Below, one piece after another: positions 1 to 9,771 of a stretch of DNA of 9,771 bases. The stretch is from a virus (Duplodnaviria; Heunggongvirae; Uroviricota; Caudoviricetes). The stretch lies in IMG/VR virus record IMGVR_UViG_2706794699_000003; one strand, written 5' to 3'. The notes under the pieces were generated by a model. It saw only the letters and a program-made list of their open reading frames with translations. It did no database searches and was not told the origin of the DNA. Positions within the stretch are counted from its first letter, which is position 1; every line of letters begins with the position of its first letter. The translations under genes and the position numbers were made by a program.

Positions 1-24
1 GATCAAGAGCCTGTCCAATGTGCA

Positions 25-60
25 TAAAAAAATCCGGAAACAAGTGAGCGTTTCCGGATT
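25..60 (-). terminator. Intrinsic terminator about 35 nt downstream of the portal stop
   Basis: Perfect 11-bp inverted repeat (31-41 aatccggaaac / 50-60 gtttccggatt) with an 8-nt loop. The plus-strand A run at 26-32 gives a U7 tract immediately after the hairpin on the minus-strand transcript. Confidence 0.5.
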
Positions 61-92
61 CTTACACAGCCACTGGATCGGTCAACTGATCC

Positions 93-1249
93 TTAACTGA
101 TCGGCATTACACCACCGGGACGCGGATTCATATCTTCCAGGTCGCGGCAGTCATTGGAAGAGTAAATTCCCCAGTTGATCCCGGTGGCGTAGGCTTCAAA
201 ACGGGACTTCATATCCCCGCGCAGTAACGCCCCGGCGTTAAATTTGGCGTAATAAACGCCCTGCTTACTTTTTCGTACCAGTCCGGTGTTGATCCGCTGT
301 TCGATGCGGGTCAGATACGGCACCAGTGAATAGTTGATAAATCCCAGCCCCAGCTCTTCGATATTGTTGAAGGTGGCGCGATCGGTGTTCTGCACCATGT
401 GCAACGGCACCCGGAACAGACGACAGATTTCTTCCAGCTGAAACTTGCGGGTTTCCAGGAACTGACTGTCCTCGGCGTTCAGCGCCATCGACTTCCAGTC
501 CAGCCCCATTTCCAGAATCATCGGGCGGTGAGCATTGCCAAGCCCCGTGTGACACTCCTCAAAATCTTTCTTCAGACGCTCGTAAGCATCCGGCGTGAGC
601 TTTTGTTCCGTACGCAACACACCGGATGTCACCGCACCATTACTAAACAACCTGGCACCGTGCTCCTCGGTTGCCGCTGCCAGTGAAATGGCCTCACGCG
701 CATACGCAATGGGATTCAGCCCGACAAGTCCATCCAGCGTCAGGGTGCGCACATGCCAGATTTCATTCTGGGTCAACACATCCACGGAACCATCCGGAAA
801 CGTCACCTGATAAACCGGCTGCCACTGGCTGTTCAGCTTCGGTTCCACACAGCCCGGATCTATCGGAAGAAGCTCCACCACTTCTCCCAGTGCCTTTACC
901 TTGTAGGCGTAAAAATTCCCCCGTAGACACAGGCAGACAATAACCAGCTCCCAGAATTCCTGCGGTGTCATGTAGCCATTAGGTTTTGCCGAAACCAACT
1001 TATGCAGTCGTTCATCCACCGCCCGTGTTTTCAGGGTACCGCTGATTTTGTAGAGACTGCAGGGCAGCATACCAACAGACTCTGCCAGCACCCTGACGCA
1101 AGAATAGACCGCCGTCAGGCGCATGGCCCGCTGGCTACTGATCCGCTTTCCGGTATAGGTGTCGTATGACAGCCCGATAGCATCAGCAGTTCTGCTGGCG
1201 TGGTCACCGGCACATCGCTTTTTCGTTGAAATAATCCCGAAAAGAACAC
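93..1249 (-). CDS. Phage portal protein, HK97 family; N-terminal region appears frame-disrupted
   Basis: The 415-aa ORF 93..1340 has the conserved portal core (AMRLTAVYSCVRVLAESVGMLP...) and sits directly downstream of the large terminase. The long ORF only has TTG starts at 1340. A GTG at 1249-1247 with a GGAGGT Shine-Dalgarno 5 nt upstream opens a different frame (MFFSGLFQRKSDVPVTTPAELLMLSG...) that stops at 1117-1115. The first in-frame ATG of the main frame is at 1124. Confidence 0.8.
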
Positions 1250-1431
1250 TATTTACCTCCGCCGACAGACTGCCGTGTACGGTCGAGATATCGCGCCACC
1301 AGCCACGACCAGAACAGGCACAGCGCCCCGGCAACAACAAAACCCGCCGGGGGATAAATCAGCCAGGCACCATACGCCAGCAAAAGCGCACCCAGCACGC
1401 CCACCAGAGGCGCGAGAATCAGCATGATCAT
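1249..1431 (-). CDS. Small hydrophobic protein (60 aa, two predicted transmembrane helices), unknown function
   Basis: ATG at 1431-1429 preceded by GAGGT at about 5 nt spacing, 11 nt after the terminase large subunit stop. Product [60 protein letters not shown] has two hydrophobic segments and CTG-rich codon use. Its TAG stop overlaps the candidate GTG portal start (TAGTG). Confidence 0.45.
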
Positions 1432-1442
1432 AATTACCTCAG

Positions 1443-3176
1443 TTAAAGCGAGCGGATCCCGTAGGACTCAATGTGGTCAGACAGCGTGTCTTCTTTCTCG
1501 TACAGCATGGCTCTGCCAACCGCCATAATCAGCGCAACTGCACCATCGATTTTGTTTTCCGCCTGCTCTTTGACGGGTTTCACCACATCATCGTTACCCG
1601 GCATGTTTTTGCCGACCACGTTGCCGATACACCAGGTCATGATGGGATTGCCGTCATGATGAAAACGTCCCGATTCAATCGCTGCTTCCAGCTCTTTCAT
1701 CGGATCGGACATATTGGTGAAGTTCTGGACGATAGTGACGGGATTCAGGTCTTCATCAGCAAGGTCATGTGACAACCCGGTCGCCCCGAAGGGGTCGATG
1801 GGTGACTCACTGACCGGGCTGATTTTGTTCGCCGCTTTGGCCTCCTCGAGGATGTAGCGATAATCCACCTCCGCACCATCGGTAACGGTCAGAACGCCCA
1901 TTTCCACCCATTTCTGAAAGCGTTCGGCTGTCCGTCGATCTTCATTTTTCTCGACGCTGTACACCGTGTCATACGGTACCCAGAAACGCGGGGCCACACT
2001 GTAGTAATGCGTTTTACCGTCAATCTCGCGGGTATAAAGTCGCGCCATGCTGTTCATATCCAGCTTACGCGCCAGGTCAAAGGCCAGAATGCACGGCTGC
2101 CCCTCGAACTGCTCAAGGGTCAGTGATTTATCCTCGCAGCTCTGCCAGCTCACCAAGTTGAAATACGCCGAACGCGCCGACACCCAGATATTGAGGTGTT
2201 TTGTTTTAAAGACGTTTGCCAGACGGGCGTTATTTTTCGCACGCTGCTGCTGACTTAACAAAAATTCGCGATAAACCGACACGCCAATATTTGGATTGGC
2301 TTTTTCCAGCACCTGCGGGCCGGTCCAGTCGTCACCTTCATCAACGGTATAGATGATCCCGAACAGTTCATCGTTAGGCACCGAGCCGTTGAGCATCTCG
2401 ATGACTTCCCGCCGCTTGTCGTAGCACGGCCCCTCAATGTTGTACCCGGCGGTGGTGATGGCCCACATCAGTGGCTGACGTCGCGCCCCCATCCCGGTAA
2501 GCATTGTGGTATAAAGCGCATCGGTGGCATGCTCGTGATATTCATCAACCACGGCACAGTGGGGTGATGAACCATCACCTGGGTTGCCGATCAGCGGTTC
2601 AAACCGCGCGCCATCCTCCGGACGGTTCATGTTTGAGGCGTTAACCTCAATCCCGAACGCTTCCGTCAGCATGGGTGTGCGTTTACACATCAGTCGCGCC
2701 GGGCGAAAGACTTCCCACGCCTGTTTCTCTGTCGTGGCACCGGAATACACTTCCGCGCCAAACTCGTTATCACAGGCAAAACAATACAGGGCAACACCGG
2801 CAGAGATTGCTGATTTGCCGTTCTTACGGGGGATTTCGGTGTACACCTCCCGGAAGCGGCGCAACCGGGTGCCTTTATTGACCCAGCCAAACGCACAGCA
2901 GATCACAAATAGCTGCCACGGCTCCAGCGTGATGGGCATCCGTTTGAATGCCCACTCCCCCTTGGTGTGCGGCAACAGCTGAATAAATTTCGCGGCCCGT
3001 TCAGCCAGGTCCTTGTCGAAGCGGTAACGAAACGACTTACTTTTTTCCGCCATCAGGTCATCAAGATGGCGCTGGCAGGCCTGAATCACAAACTGGCAGG
3101 CAACAATCTTTCCGCGCACGACATCCCGGGCATACTGATTTGCAGCATTTACGTTGGGGTAAGATTTCCGGCTCAT
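1443..3176 (-). CDS. Terminase large subunit
   Basis: 577-aa ORF with terminase ATPase and nuclease-like regions. Its ATG overlaps the small-subunit stop in an ATGA arrangement at 3173-3176. Gene order is terS, terL, portal. Confidence 0.92.
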
Positions 3177-3667
3177 GATTCGATAATTTTCAGAAACGGG
3201 TTAGTGGCTTTCTTCTGCCCCGCCAGGCCAATCAGACGCTGGCGGCTGCTGGGGTCGAGTCCGAGCATTGCCCCCGTGCTGCTCATCTCGGACTCCTGTT
3301 CTTTTTTGGCGGTCAGCTCCGGATTTTTGACCCTGCCGCCCATTGCACCGGTGATGGTGTTGCCCTGTATGGCAATATTTTTCACGGCACGTCGCCAGAA
3401 CTCATAGGCCACGCACCACCGCTCAAGTACCGCCAGGTCAGTCACGCACAGCAGGCCCTGACCGCAGAGTTCTTTGGTTGTCAGTTGCCACATGATCGTG
3501 GCGAGAGGGAGATCTTCTTCAGCGAACCACTCTGGTGGCTCAACACCTTTGATGGGCGTAAAAACAGGTTCATCTTTGTTCAGGGCTCGCTTGCCGGGGT
3601 TTCCGGCCAGCGCCTTGCGCGCCGTTGGCTTGGGGCGACGCCCGGAACGCCCCGCCGTTCCAGCCAT
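3173..3667 (-). CDS. Terminase small subunit, P27 family
   Basis: N-terminus [34 protein letters not shown] is typical of P27-type small subunits. ATG at 3667 has GGAG 9 nt upstream; the GTG at 3676 abuts the Shine-Dalgarno and is less likely. Stop overlaps the terL start. Confidence 0.85.
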
Positions 3668-3699
3668 ATGCGGCACTCCTGGTTAAATTTCATTTTTCG

Positions 3700-3788
3700 C
3701 GGGTATAAAAAAACGATGGGGCGGGCAGTCCGGAAGACGTCAGGTCACAGGGATTTGCCCCGCCCCTCCCTACAAGTGAGAATAATTA
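3700..3788. other. Putative cos / packaging-site region between HNH and terS, with a terminator-like hairpin
   Basis: 89-nt intergenic region. G-rich imperfect inverted repeat (3718-3726 GGGGCGGGC / 3757-3766 GCCCCGCCCC) encloses a loop containing GACGTC. On the minus strand it is followed by ATCG and a T7 tract. HK97-like packaging modules place cos between the HNH gene and terS. Confidence 0.3.
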
Positions 3789-4139
3789 TCACCGGATTCG
3801 TTCGCGCGCTGTTTTCGCTTTATGGCAGGGCCAGCACAGACTCTGCAGGTTGCTGTCTGCGTCTGTTCCGCCATGCGCTTTCGGGATGATGTGGTCGACG
3901 GTTTTCGCCTCGCTCACCACACCGACACGCAGACACAACTGACACAGACCTTTATCGCGCTTCAGAATACGGGCACGAATCACCGTCCATTTTGAGCCAT
4001 AGCCACGCTGGTGGCGGCTCAGTCCGCGCTGGTGCTGCACCCAGCCTTCACCGCGATGTTTATCGCAGTAACCCGAACTGTCTGTGGTTGTACCTGCACA
4101 TCCACGCTTACGGCAGGCACGTGGGATTAGTGATGGCAT
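3789..4139 (-). CDS. HNH endonuclease, packaging-associated
   Basis: 116-aa product with Cys-rich N-terminus (CRKRGCAG...CDKHR) and HNH motif (VDHIIPKAHGGTDADSNLQSLCWPCHKAKT). GAGGT Shine-Dalgarno 5 nt upstream of the ATG at 4139. Position immediately upstream of terS matches HK97-type modules. Confidence 0.88.
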   Translation of the reverse strand: MPSLIPRACRKRGCAGTTTDSSGYCDKHRGEGWVQHQRGLSRHQRGYGSKWTVIRARILKRDKGLCQLCLRVGVVSEAKTVDHIIPKAHGGTDADSNLQSLCWPCHKAKTARERIR

Positions 4140-4181
4140 AAATACCTCATACCCTGCGAAATGTTTACCACGATAAAAAGG

Positions 4182-4436
4182 CTACTTAATGCACTGAGTG
4201 CGGATATACTCCTGTGCCCCTTCCAGTTGCATCTGCATCGTCATCAGCCGCTCTCTGAGGGTGAAATAATCCCGTTCAGCGGTGTCTGCCAGTCGGGGGC
4301 TGGTTGCATTATCCACGCCGGAGGCGGTGGTGGCTTCACGCACTGACTGACAGACTGCTTTGATGTGCAACCGACGACGACCAGCGGCAACATCAGCGCG
4401 CAGAGTTTCATTTTCAGCTTTCGCATCAGCTAACTC
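4182..4436 (-). CDS. Rz: Rz i-spanin, C-terminal 84 codons visible; N-terminus lies in the N run
   Basis: ELADAKAENETLRADVAAGRRRLHIKAVCQSVREATTASGVDNATSPRLADTAERDYFTLRERL... is near-identical to the recalled lambda Rz C-terminal half. TAG stop at 4182-4184. Confidence 0.85.
   Translation of the reverse strand, partial: ELADAKAENETLRADVAAGRRRLHIKAVCQSVREATTASGVDNATSPRLADTAERDYFTLRERLMTMQMQLEGAQEYIRTQCIK
4244..4426 (-). CDS. Rz1: Rz1 o-spanin, embedded in the +1 frame of Rz
   Basis: MRKLKMKLCALMLPLVVVGCTSKQSVSQCVKPPPPPAWIMQPAPDWQTPLNGIISPSESG has a lipobox (VVGC) and a proline-rich core, and closely matches recalled lambda Rz1. It lies wholly inside Rz in another frame. Confidence 0.85.
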   Translation of the reverse strand: MRKLKMKLCALMLPLVVVGCTSKQSVSQCVKPPPPPAWIMQPAPDWQTPLNGIISPSESG

Positions 4437-4802
4437 NNNNNNNNNNNNNNNNNNNNNNNNNNNNNNNNNNNNNNNNNNNNNNNNNNNNNNNNNNNNNNNN
4501 NNNNNNNNNNNNNNNNNNNNNNNNNNNNNNNNNNNNNNNNNNNNNNNNNNNNNNNNNNNNNNNNNNNNNNNNNNNNNNNNNNNNNNNNNNNNNNNNNNNN
4601 NNNNNNNNNNNNNNNNNNNNNNNNNNNNNNNNNNNNNNNNNNNNNNNNNNNNNNNNNNNNNNNNNNNNNNNNNNNNNNNNNNNNNNNNNNNNNNNNNNNN
4701 NNNNNNNNNNNNNNNNNNNNNNNNNNNNNNNNNNNNNNNNNNNNNNNNNNNNNNNNNNNNNNNNNNNNNNNNNNNNNNNNNNNNNNNNNNNNNNNNNNNN
4801 NN
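4437..4802. other. Run of 366 N (assembly gap or masked sequence)
   Basis: Uninterrupted n characters. The flanking reading frames imply it hides the endolysin C-terminus and the Rz N-terminus. Confidence 0.99.
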
Positions 4803-5088: not shown

Positions 5089-5277
5089 TATTCACCTCTC
5101 GCAGCCTTACGCTTGTCTTCTCTTATTTTGAAATACAGATTTGTCAGATAAGTCAGAAGCCCCAGAAGCAGACTTCCCAGCACACCAATCGCAGCCCACT
5201 GTGATGGACTGACCTGATCCAACCACTGCAAAAACCAGTAGCCGGCACTGCCGGCGGAGGTGCCGTANNNNNNNNNN
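5088..5277 (-). CDS. S: Holin, phage 21 S-type pinholin-like; start lies in the N run
   Basis: Minus-strand translation of 5277..5091 gives [59 protein letters not shown], matching recalled S21. TAA stop at 5090-5088 overlaps the endolysin ATG. Not in the ORF track because the start is hidden. Confidence 0.8.
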
Positions 5278-5579
5278 NNNNNNNNNNNNNNNNNNNNNNN
5301 NNNNNNNNNNNNNNNNNNNNNNNNNNNNNNNNNNNNNNNNNNNNNNNNNNNNNNNNNNNNNNNNNNNNNNNNNNNNNNNNNNNNNNNNNNNNNNNNNNNN
5401 NNNNNNNNNNNNNNNNNNNNNNNNNNNNNNNNNNNNNNNNNNNNNNNNNNNNNNNNNNNNNNNNNNNNNNNNNNNNNNNNNNNNNNNNNNNNNNNNNNNN
5501 NNNNNNNNNNNNNNNNNNNNNNNNNNNNNNNNNNNNNNNNNNNNNNNNNNNNNNNNNNNNNNNNNNNNNNNNNNNNNNN
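5278..5579. other. Run of 302 N (assembly gap or masked sequence)
   Basis: Uninterrupted n characters. It hides roughly 9 holin codons and about 275 nt upstream of the holin. Confidence 0.99.
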
Positions 5580-7934: not shown

Positions 7935-8191
7935 CAGCGCAGCACCTCCTGCACCATTTTTTCAAACTTTCCAACTTTGGTTTCCAGCTCTGCCACACAA
8001 TCAACGAGCTCATCCACCGCTTTTTGTGCGCGATGTTTCGCCTGCATCAGTTCCCTGAGCGCTGGCACCATATCCCGACGAATGGCATCTTTTGTTACAC
8101 CTGTTTTTTCCAGTTGTTCCGCCTGTCGCAACATTTCCTGCGCGTGTTTACGCAATTGTTCAGAGGTAAAAGTCATTGTCTGGTTGTTCAA
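7934..8191 (-). CDS. Small alpha-helical / coiled-coil protein of unknown function (80-85 aa)
   Basis: Heptad-like charged sequence (EQLRKHAQEMLRQAEQLEKTGV...KAVDELVDCVAELETKVGKFEKMVQEVLR). A TTG start overlaps the helicase stop (TTTGA) with GGAG about 9 nt upstream; the alternative ATG is at 8176. Its TGA overlaps the rusA ATG. Confidence 0.5.
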   Translation of the reverse strand: MNNQTMTFTSEQLRKHAQEMLRQAEQLEKTGVTKDAIRRDMVPALRELMQAKHRAQKAVDELVDCVAELETKVGKFEKMVQEVLR

Positions 8192-9579
8192 AAGAAACGC
8201 TCCATCTTACTGCTGTCGGTACGTGTATTGCTGTATCTGCGCGGCTGGGGCTGCCGCATTGGGGTGGAAAGAACCTGTGCGCTTTCCTGGTCCACAGGCA
8301 GAAAATGTCCGTTATAAAAACGCCGGTAAATCGTCCCCAGAGAACCGTTACGTTGTTTCGTGATATTAATTTCTGCTATGCCTGTAGCCTGTGTATCCGG
8401 GTTGTACACTTCATCCCTGTAAAGCATCAGAATGATGTCTGCATCCGCCTCTATTTCTCCGGAATTTTTCAGGTCTGAGTTCATGGGACGTTTATTGGGT
8501 CTGGACTCCACACCGCGGGAGAGCTGGCTCAGCGCAATCAACGGAAAACCACCGGATTTTGCCAGGCCTTTAAGCCCCTTTGAGATTTCACCCACGGCAA
8601 GGTCATGACGCCCCGTGGTTCGGGTTTTTATCAGCCCGAGATAATCAACCACCACCAGCGCCGTTTCCGGATGTTTAATCAGATGGTGTTTCGTTGTTGC
8701 GCATATCTCATCAATGGTCAGGTTCGCCTGGTCCACCATCCAGATATTGCGCCCGGTCATCCGCCCCACCCCTTGTGAGAAACGCGCCCAGTCTTCATCT
8801 TCAAAGTGAGCCACAGATTTCAGGCGTGATACTGGCATCCCTCCAGCCGCAGACACCATACGTTCACCAATCTGGATGTTCGCCATCTCCATGGTGAACA
8901 GAAGCACACCATGCCCCTGCTCAGTCACCTTGTCGATGATGTCCAGCGCAAGTTCGGTTTTCCCCATCGAAGGACGGGCGGCAATGAATACCAGGTCTCC
9001 GGGCTCCATACCGCCTGTTTTTGCGTCCAGTTCATCAATACCGGTCATCAACGTCCTGGATTTCTCCAGCCCCTGATTCCGGCATTCAACACGCTCAACC
9101 ACTTCCGGAAGCACATCATCAATATGTACCGGCTGAATGACGCCCTTTCCTGTCGACAGTGTGACCATCATGTTCTGCGCATCCTTCAGGGCATCTTCAG
9201 CTGCTTCACAGGTATGCGCATCACGTAATTTCTGCAGCGCCTCATTCAGTGTTTTTTCTGCATCGCGCAGTGCGGCATTGCGCCGCAACGCTGCAACATA
9301 GTGCTCCAGTGAAGACTTCACCCAGGTTTTACGCCCGGTATCAGTAATCACCGGGGCAAGTTCCGGCATCTCATTACACAACAGCACGGGGTCAATCACT
9401 CCTGAAACACGGGCCTGTCTGCAGATGCCTGTGTAGATATCCCGATACGCTCGTACAGAAAAAATGTCCGCCGGTAGTGTGATCAGAATATCCATCACTT
9501 CATGATCTGCCCCACGCAGAAAGAATGCGCCAATGACAGCGCCTTCCAGGTCATCATTACGCCAGACTGGTGTTGTCAT
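8188..9579 (-). CDS. DnaB-family replicative DNA helicase
   Basis: Walker A (ARPSMGKTELALDI), DnaB-type C-terminal RecA-like core (LIALSQLSRGVESRPNKRPMNSDLKNSGEIEADADIILMLYRDEVY) and DnaB N-domain. Preferred start is the ATG at 9579 with AGAGGTG 7 nt upstream; the ORF-track extension to 9720 lacks a good start. Confidence 0.9.
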   Translation of the reverse strand: MTTPVWRNDDLEGAVIGAFFLRGADHEVMDILITLPADIFSVRAYRDIYTGICRQARVSGVIDPVLLCNEMPELAPVITDTGRKTWVKSSLEHYVAALRRNAALRDAEKTLNEALQKLRDAHTCEAAEDALKDAQNMMVTLSTGKGVIQPVHIDDVLPEVVERVECRNQGLEKSRTLMTGIDELDAKTGGMEPGDLVFIAARPSMGKTELALDIIDKVTEQGHGVLLFTMEMANIQIGERMVSAAGGMPVSRLKSVAHFEDEDWARFSQGVGRMTGRNIWMVDQANLTIDEICATTKHHLIKHPETALVVVDYLGLIKTRTTGRHDLAVGEISKGLKGLAKSGGFPLIALSQLSRGVESRPNKRPMNSDLKNSGEIEADADIILMLYRDEVYNPDTQATGIAEINITKQRNGSLGTIYRRFYNGHFLPVDQESAQVLSTPMRQPQPRRYSNTRTDSSKMERFF

Positions 9580-9771
9580 GCAGCCACACCTCTGATACAA
9601 GAACGGTAGCTGGGCCAGTTGAACGACAACCAGTTGCGCCCCCCGTCTGTGATCCTGTCGGCAATGCGGGGGCTGATGAACGCTGGATTTGCCCCTATAT
9701 TTCCAGACACCTGTTATCACTTAACCCATTACTGGCTTGCTGCCGTAGATATTCCCGTGGCGAGCGATAAC

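Follow-up and report, generated by a model that had tools for sequence, protein, structure and literature searches.

The window, as we call the whole 9,771-nucleotide stretch of DNA analyzed here, carries on its minus strand a run of prophage genes in the order terminase large subunit, ymfR-type small hydrophobic protein and phage portal protein, the last of which ends against the insertion sequence IS4 (Table 1). All coordinates of the portal region are window positions and refer to the minus strand. The exact terminase protein of the window occurs in eight complete chromosomes, contains the Pfam domains TerL_ATPase and TerL_nuclease, and has homologs annotated as terminase large subunit. The exact 60-residue protein encoded by the adjacent gene is named YmfR in Shigella sonnei. 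Its one-base overlap with the portal gene is kept in E. coli prophages and in the phages phiP27 and ST64B, where it is annotated as ymfR or as a membrane protein. We also observed that a ymfR gene sits between the large terminase and portal genes in E. coli prophages, phiP27, ST64B and the K-12 prophage e14. Searches of Pfam and NCBIfam assigned no family to ymfR.

At the opposite end of the window, positions ~9670-9771 match IS2, a member of the IS3 family. A 510-residue ORF designated "DnaB" (8188-9720) extends into this IS2 sequence; other annotations give a helicase of 463 residues, and the 5' end of the longer ORF may be IS-derived or truncated. With IS4 at one end and IS2 at the other, the window is thus a draft contig whose limits are set by repeated IS copies. 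A scan of positions 1-1600 for promoters and terminators gave counts that were not above those of shuffled sequences.

Table 1. Features of the portal locus and neighboring genes, in window positions
Feature	Position	Strand	Remarks
IS4 end	1..109		Begins TAATGCCGATCAG at 109, reading downward; continues past the window edge
Portal codons 22-380	111..1187	-	-1 frame; entire Pfam Phage_portal domain inside
Remnant of the original portal frame	1115..1249	-	44 codons, GTG start, TGA at 1117-1115 (from translation)
ATG equivalent to Met43 of the intact portal	1122..1124	-	Start used by gene callers for the 343-residue "portal protein"
One-base deletion site	1186..1188	-	Single G at 1187; only gap in the coding alignment
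ymfR-type small hydrophobic protein gene	1249..1431	-	60 aa; one base of its TAG (1251-1249) is shared with the portal GTG
Shine-Dalgarno-like GGAGGT	1255..1260	-	Invariant across all aligned homologs
Terminase large subunit gene	1443..3176	-	577 aa, intact; upstream neighbor in the packaging module

Two reading frames at the portal start

The GTG at 1249-1247 is the portal start codon, and the GGAGGT motif (1260-1255) precedes it by five bases. The ORF that opens here contains portal codons 1-21 (1249-1187), the products of which are the same as in intact portals except for A13V, followed by 23 out-of-frame codons and the TGA. The rest of the portal is encoded by a second ORF, 1340..93, which contains AIGLSYDTYTGKRISSQRAMRLTAVYSCVRVL and reads ADAIGLSYDTYTGKRISSQRAMRLTAVYSCVRVL in the -1 frame; the spacing between the GTG and an ATG at 1124 (1249-1124 = 125 = 3x41+2) sets this frame at -1 relative to the first. 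Upstream of its conserved part, the second ORF offers as in-frame starts only the TTG codons at 1340, 1337 and 1334 and the ATG at 1124. These readings bear out a preliminary description of this DNA, which had split the portal N terminus between a frame starting at GTG 1249 behind GGAGGT and stopping at 1117-1115 and a core in another frame, here found to be the -1 frame, and had named TTG codons at 1340 and the ATG at 1124 as the only starts for the core.

The TGA closing the 44-codon frame comes seven bases downstream of the ATG at 1124, and a 343-residue gene is called at the equivalent position in complete genomes. No Shine-Dalgarno sequence is evident in front of it, the upstream bases being GCCAGCGGGCC.

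Once the frame is repaired, the family of the encoded protein is clear. The repaired protein scores 359.2 bits against the Pfam family Phage_portal (PF04860; cut-off 39.1) over residues 47-373 and 263.7 bits against the NCBIfam family portal_HK97 (TIGR01537; cut-off 112.05) over residues 39-379. The Phage_portal domain thus lies, at residues 47-373 of the intact protein, wholly downstream of Met43. The phiP27 ortholog aligns over residues 17-387 to the solved, dodecameric portal of HK97 (8CEZ) with E = 1.5e-53. A chance resemblance of the two ORFs to portal sequences is excluded, because residues 1-21 and 22-380 are collinear with single 413-residue portals and are interrupted by only one alignment gap in the gene.

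A one-base deletion and its distribution

When the window was aligned with six intact homologs using MAFFT (the E. coli prophages of A36, UPEC129 and C311 and the phages phiP27, SfIV and ST64B), the coding region showed one gap and no other. At this gap the window has GAACT-GCTGATGCT, and the other sequences have GAGCTGGCGGAGGCT or GAGCTGGCGGATGCT. The window therefore reads CTGCT at 1189-1185 where intact genes read CTGGCT (Leu21-Ala22), having lost one G of GG. The preliminary description had anticipated a single-base indel somewhere between about 1117 and 1248 and had proposed alignment to portal homologs as the way to find it; the deletion falls inside that interval, at 1188/1186, and the alignment locates the frame switch at codons 21/22.

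The portal gene of the window is 89-96% identical in DNA sequence to its close relatives across the gene. In A36, UPEC129, C311, phiP27 and SfIV, the portal is a single 413-residue ORF that begins at the same GTG, and the ST64B portal is annotated as one codon longer. Of 5426 complete E. coli genomes, 1385 have homologs of window positions 900-1500, and all of these homologs carry the annotations terminase large subunit, ymfR and phage portal protein. In a spread sample drawn from the 1401 E. coli records that match, 58 matches are full-length. Each covers 160 bases per 159 query bases, so the deletion is present in none, and all 58 are annotated as one "phage portal protein".

Beside the gap are three substitutions, each at a third codon position of the portal frame: a synonymous pair, and one that replaces Glu23 with Asp, a residue also found in SfIV, ST64B and E. 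coli C311. This pattern indicates that the allele diverged as a working gene and afterwards lost one base, and it leads us to expect an ancestral allele GAA CTG GCT GAT GCT (E L A D A). When either form was admitted, scanning for the pattern found the undeleted allele, GAACTGGCTGATGCT, twice: in an IMG/VR contig (L017) and, as part of a complete 413-residue portal ORF, in a metagenome contig (L024). Overall identity to the window is only 82-95% for both contigs, which are therefore not its direct ancestors. Complete E. coli genomes held no close undeleted ancestor, the best match to the repaired query being only 95.0%. Codon changes specific to the window comprise 15 synonymous and 4 non-synonymous substitutions (A13V, D/E162N, R233C and P365S), of which R233C and P365S fall where the six homologs do not vary. 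These proportions are compatible with divergence of the gene under selection and a rather recent inactivation, and are at most a weak sign of relaxed constraint.

The deletion itself recurs widely. The same 251 bases around the break, deletion included, are found with 0 differences in all eight of the complete chromosomes identified through the exact terminase protein; these derive from separate projects and include that of Shigella sonnei Ss046 (CP000038.1). The frameshifted allele is also present in six IMG/VR contigs. Moreover, the 343-residue product, which runs from ATG 1124 to the stop at 93 and depends on the frameshift, is encoded on at least 1000 contigs, as is a partial form of 336 residues, and every named member listed for the cluster of the 343-residue product is S. 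sonnei. The Ss046 record carries a 414-residue version named "putative portal protein" (AAZ89394.1). One degenerate and one exact scan of a genome-contig collection, presumably one with no S. sonnei representative, returned 0 matches to the junction.

IS4 at the portal 3' end and the surrounding chromosome

The 3' end of the portal gene is interrupted by an insertion sequence. Alignment with the IS4 end of the K-12 lineage and with the SfIV portal shows that portal homology ends at 110, with the boundary at 110/109. The left end of the element, TAATGCCGATCAGTTAAGG, is identical to IS4 of the K-12 lineage; window positions 1-109 match IS4 in 2649 E. coli genomes, and the IS4 transposase gene comes next in complete genomes. 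The portal is thereby cut after codon 380 of 413, and its open frame gains the IS4-derived residues VMPIS and a stop codon (110-93). This portal/IS4 junction is common to all eight complete chromosomes. The 3' truncation was absent from the preliminary description.

We found the reciprocal junction on an IMG/VR contig, L023, where positions 4184-4213 join the IS4 right end to GTCCCGGTGGTG and the portal 3' end, followed by protease, capsid and tail genes. The 12 bases of GTCCCGGTGGTG precede the IS4 left end in the window and trail the right end on L023. IS4 generates direct target duplications of 11-13 bp. The terminal sequence of the element thus abuts its target and is accompanied by a 12-bp direct duplication, and the occurrence of the same 12 bases at both junctions points to canonical IS4 transposition. 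The portal part of L023 (1-2818) has the frameshift allele, differs from the window at P365S, and reads through the IS4 site to a scaffold N at 2819; IS4 occupies 2839-4196 and lacks its first 68 bases; and a segment of 386 bases is repeated with 99.2% identity on both sides of IS4. L023 may thus be two prophage copies joined in scaffolding, or it may show that the frameshift is older than the IS4 insertion.

The portal sequence just outside IS4 (window 110-130, AATCCGCGTCCCGGTGGTG) resembles the IS4 flank beside yjdN (AATCCGCCACGATGGAG) in J53, an E. coli strain of the K-12 lineage (L015). BLAST extended the IS4 match 19 bases beyond its true end. This likeness may reflect a target-site preference of IS4.

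Prohead protease or capsid homologs were found within 10 kb of the locus in none of the eight complete chromosomes. Beyond IS4 (in L003-L010, past locus position ~14200), the neighboring genes differ between complete S. sonnei chromosomes. Some have an IS4 truncated by an IS3-family element, with bamE-recN-nadK-grpE coming next; others have a full IS4 and then raiA-pheL-pheA-tyrA-aroF. These differing neighbors are what IS-mediated rearrangement would give, and indicate such events between strains. A member of the portal family is typically one ORF of ~410 residues beside the terminase gene, with prohead protease and capsid genes after it, and the locus lacks this arrangement. With a frame break at codons 21/22, an IS4 cut after codon 380, and no protease or capsid gene nearby, it holds a pseudogene of the family and no working member.

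Interpretation and known systems

We conclude that the window very probably contains the S. sonnei remnant of a lambdoid prophage of the phiP27/SfIV/ST64B type, carrying an HK97-family portal pseudogene that bears two lesions, a one-base deletion and an IS4 insertion. One G was lost from the GG of CTG GCT (codons 21-22), probably through an ordinary replication error. Ribosomes initiating at the native GTG at 1249 would then join 23 wrong residues to 21 correct ones before stopping at 1117-1115, and the portal core (residues 22-380) would be left untranslated in the -1 frame. The other lesion arose when IS4 entered codon 381 with a 12-bp target duplication, removing the last 33 codons, and IS-mediated rearrangement in S. 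sonnei chromosomes has probably parted the portal from the protease, capsid and tail genes. Such a locus should make no functional portal, and the prophage should be unable to package DNA. We suggest that, with selection relaxed, drift fixed both lesions in the clonal lineage of S. sonnei.

A different fate for the gene would be that the break is bypassed or exploited, whether by -1 ribosomal frameshifting, by transcriptional slippage, or by coupling of the stop at 1115 to reinitiation at ATG 1124, the last yielding a 343-residue truncated portal with a role such as interference with incoming related phages. The seven bases that separate the stop at 1117-1115 from ATG 1124 are a geometry compatible with termination-reinitiation, and judged from the sequence a truncated product of 343 residues may be made from this ATG. 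The entire Pfam core is moreover still open over 343 codons, and the non-synonymous changes specific to the window number only 4. However, an open frame of this length is expected by default in a young pseudogene, intact relatives require no recoding, the 33 C-terminal residues are replaced by the IS4-derived VMPIS, and no cognate protease or capsid gene lies nearby. Positions 1115-1249, where the two ORFs overlap, contain no in-frame X XXY YYZ slippery heptamer and no homopolymer longer than 5 (the longest is A5). We accordingly regard a bypass or exploitation of the break as highly unlikely. In the specific form in which the 343-codon frame (Met43-Gly380 plus VMPIS) is translated by termination-reinitiation and retained as a domesticated decoy, it is equally doubtful; were this so, a portal subunit truncated at both its N and C termini could poison procapsid assembly of incoming phages of the phiP27/SfIV type.

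Programmed frameshifting and transcriptional slippage were considered separately and rejected: a signal for either is lacking, and the two-frame arrangement is not kept in the relatives sampled outside S. sonnei.

Nor does the locus appear to hold two genuine genes, a conserved 44-residue ORF and a short portal with its natural start at ATG 1124. Gene callers do begin their 343-residue "portal protein" at this codon, and the whole Phage_portal domain (residues 47-373) lies past Met43. Yet relatives sampled outside S. sonnei have one 413-residue ORF from the GTG, ATG 1124 has no evident Shine-Dalgarno sequence, and residues 22-44 of the short ORF (LMLSGCHTT...) are without counterpart in relatives, whereas the -1 frame has one. 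We saw no 44-residue ORF conserved under purifying selection in phages with a short portal. TIGR01537 aligns from residue 39 and the HK97 portal structure from residue 17; the latter places the stretch before the break within the conserved protein, so an independent 44-residue gene fails. The preliminary description had kept this arrangement as its alternative, and the single ORFs of the homologs, together with the HK97 alignment, refute it; we give it next to no credence.

The same description had left two causes for the frame break, a genuine inactivating frameshift marking a defective prophage and an assembly error. The former is upheld by the eight chromosomes, the at least 1000 contigs, and the presence of IS4 in the same gene, and the latter falls away. 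The runs of N that had been noted in the contig do exist, at 4437-4802 and 5268-5579 (366 and 312 bases), but lie >3 kb from the break and have no part in it. In Ss046, the two runs correspond to 418 and 653 real bases (L010 8323-8740 and 7205-7857), and they are scaffold gaps of estimated size whose lengths are not the true ones; the former segment is inside the lysozyme and Rz genes, and the latter is upstream of the holin gene. An assembly or sequencing error, in which the true genome would read CTGGCT and encode an intact portal N terminus, has a negligible probability despite the draft status of the window, N runs with lengths unlike those of complete genomes, and the IS copies at its bounds, because the GG to G difference recurs across so many independent assemblies, and GG is not a homopolymer length that gives systematic errors on any platform.

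For annotation, the correct label of the locus, read as a decayed prophage gene, is one portal pseudogene with a frameshift and an IS4 truncation. Many deposited S. sonnei records mislabel it as a "portal protein" of 343 or 414 residues accompanied by a hypothetical 44-residue ORF. In the genomes seen here, the loss of the single G and the portal/IS4 junction are both fixed and specific to the lineage, and as markers they could be targets for S. sonnei typing. Otherwise the locus is an ordinary pseudogene, sequenced before, within a cryptic prophage of an IS-rich pathogen that has itself been sequenced heavily. It represents routine decay, a further example of how Shigella prophages erode through point mutation and IS activity, with little import beyond annotation.

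The decay seen here has parallels in known systems. IS-driven pseudogenization and rearrangement are typical of Shigella and well documented (PMC8072062). The window is likewise bounded by IS4 and IS2 and has a gene interrupted by an IS; the frameshift itself is a point deletion and did not involve an IS event. Among characterized portals, HK97 gp3 (PDB 8CEZ/8FQL; PF04860/TIGR01537) has clear sequence homology to the phiP27 ortholog, with ~30-35% identity estimated by eye from the alignment, whereas the window copy is not translatable as one chain.

The closest intact systems are phiP27 (L38, NP_543090), SfIV, SfII, ST64B and the ymfR-linked E. coli prophages, which share with the window the order small terminase, large terminase, ymfR and portal, including a GTG that overlaps the ymfR stop codon. 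In them, the portal is a single 413-residue ORF with the prohead protease and capsid genes behind it; the window, in contrast, is without one G at codons 21/22 and without codons 381-413, and has IS4 next. The nearest analogue is the cryptic prophage e14 of E. coli K-12 (ymfN-ymfR-beeE), in which the same module has decayed: ymfR is followed by beeE, a 157-residue N-terminal portal fragment, beside pseudogenes, and the K-12 copy matches window positions 1100-1260 at 89.4%. The two remnants differ in how the portal was lost. In e14 the N terminus remains in frame and the gene is shortened by deletion or fusion, whereas in the window a frameshift disrupts the N terminus and IS4 cuts off the 3' end.
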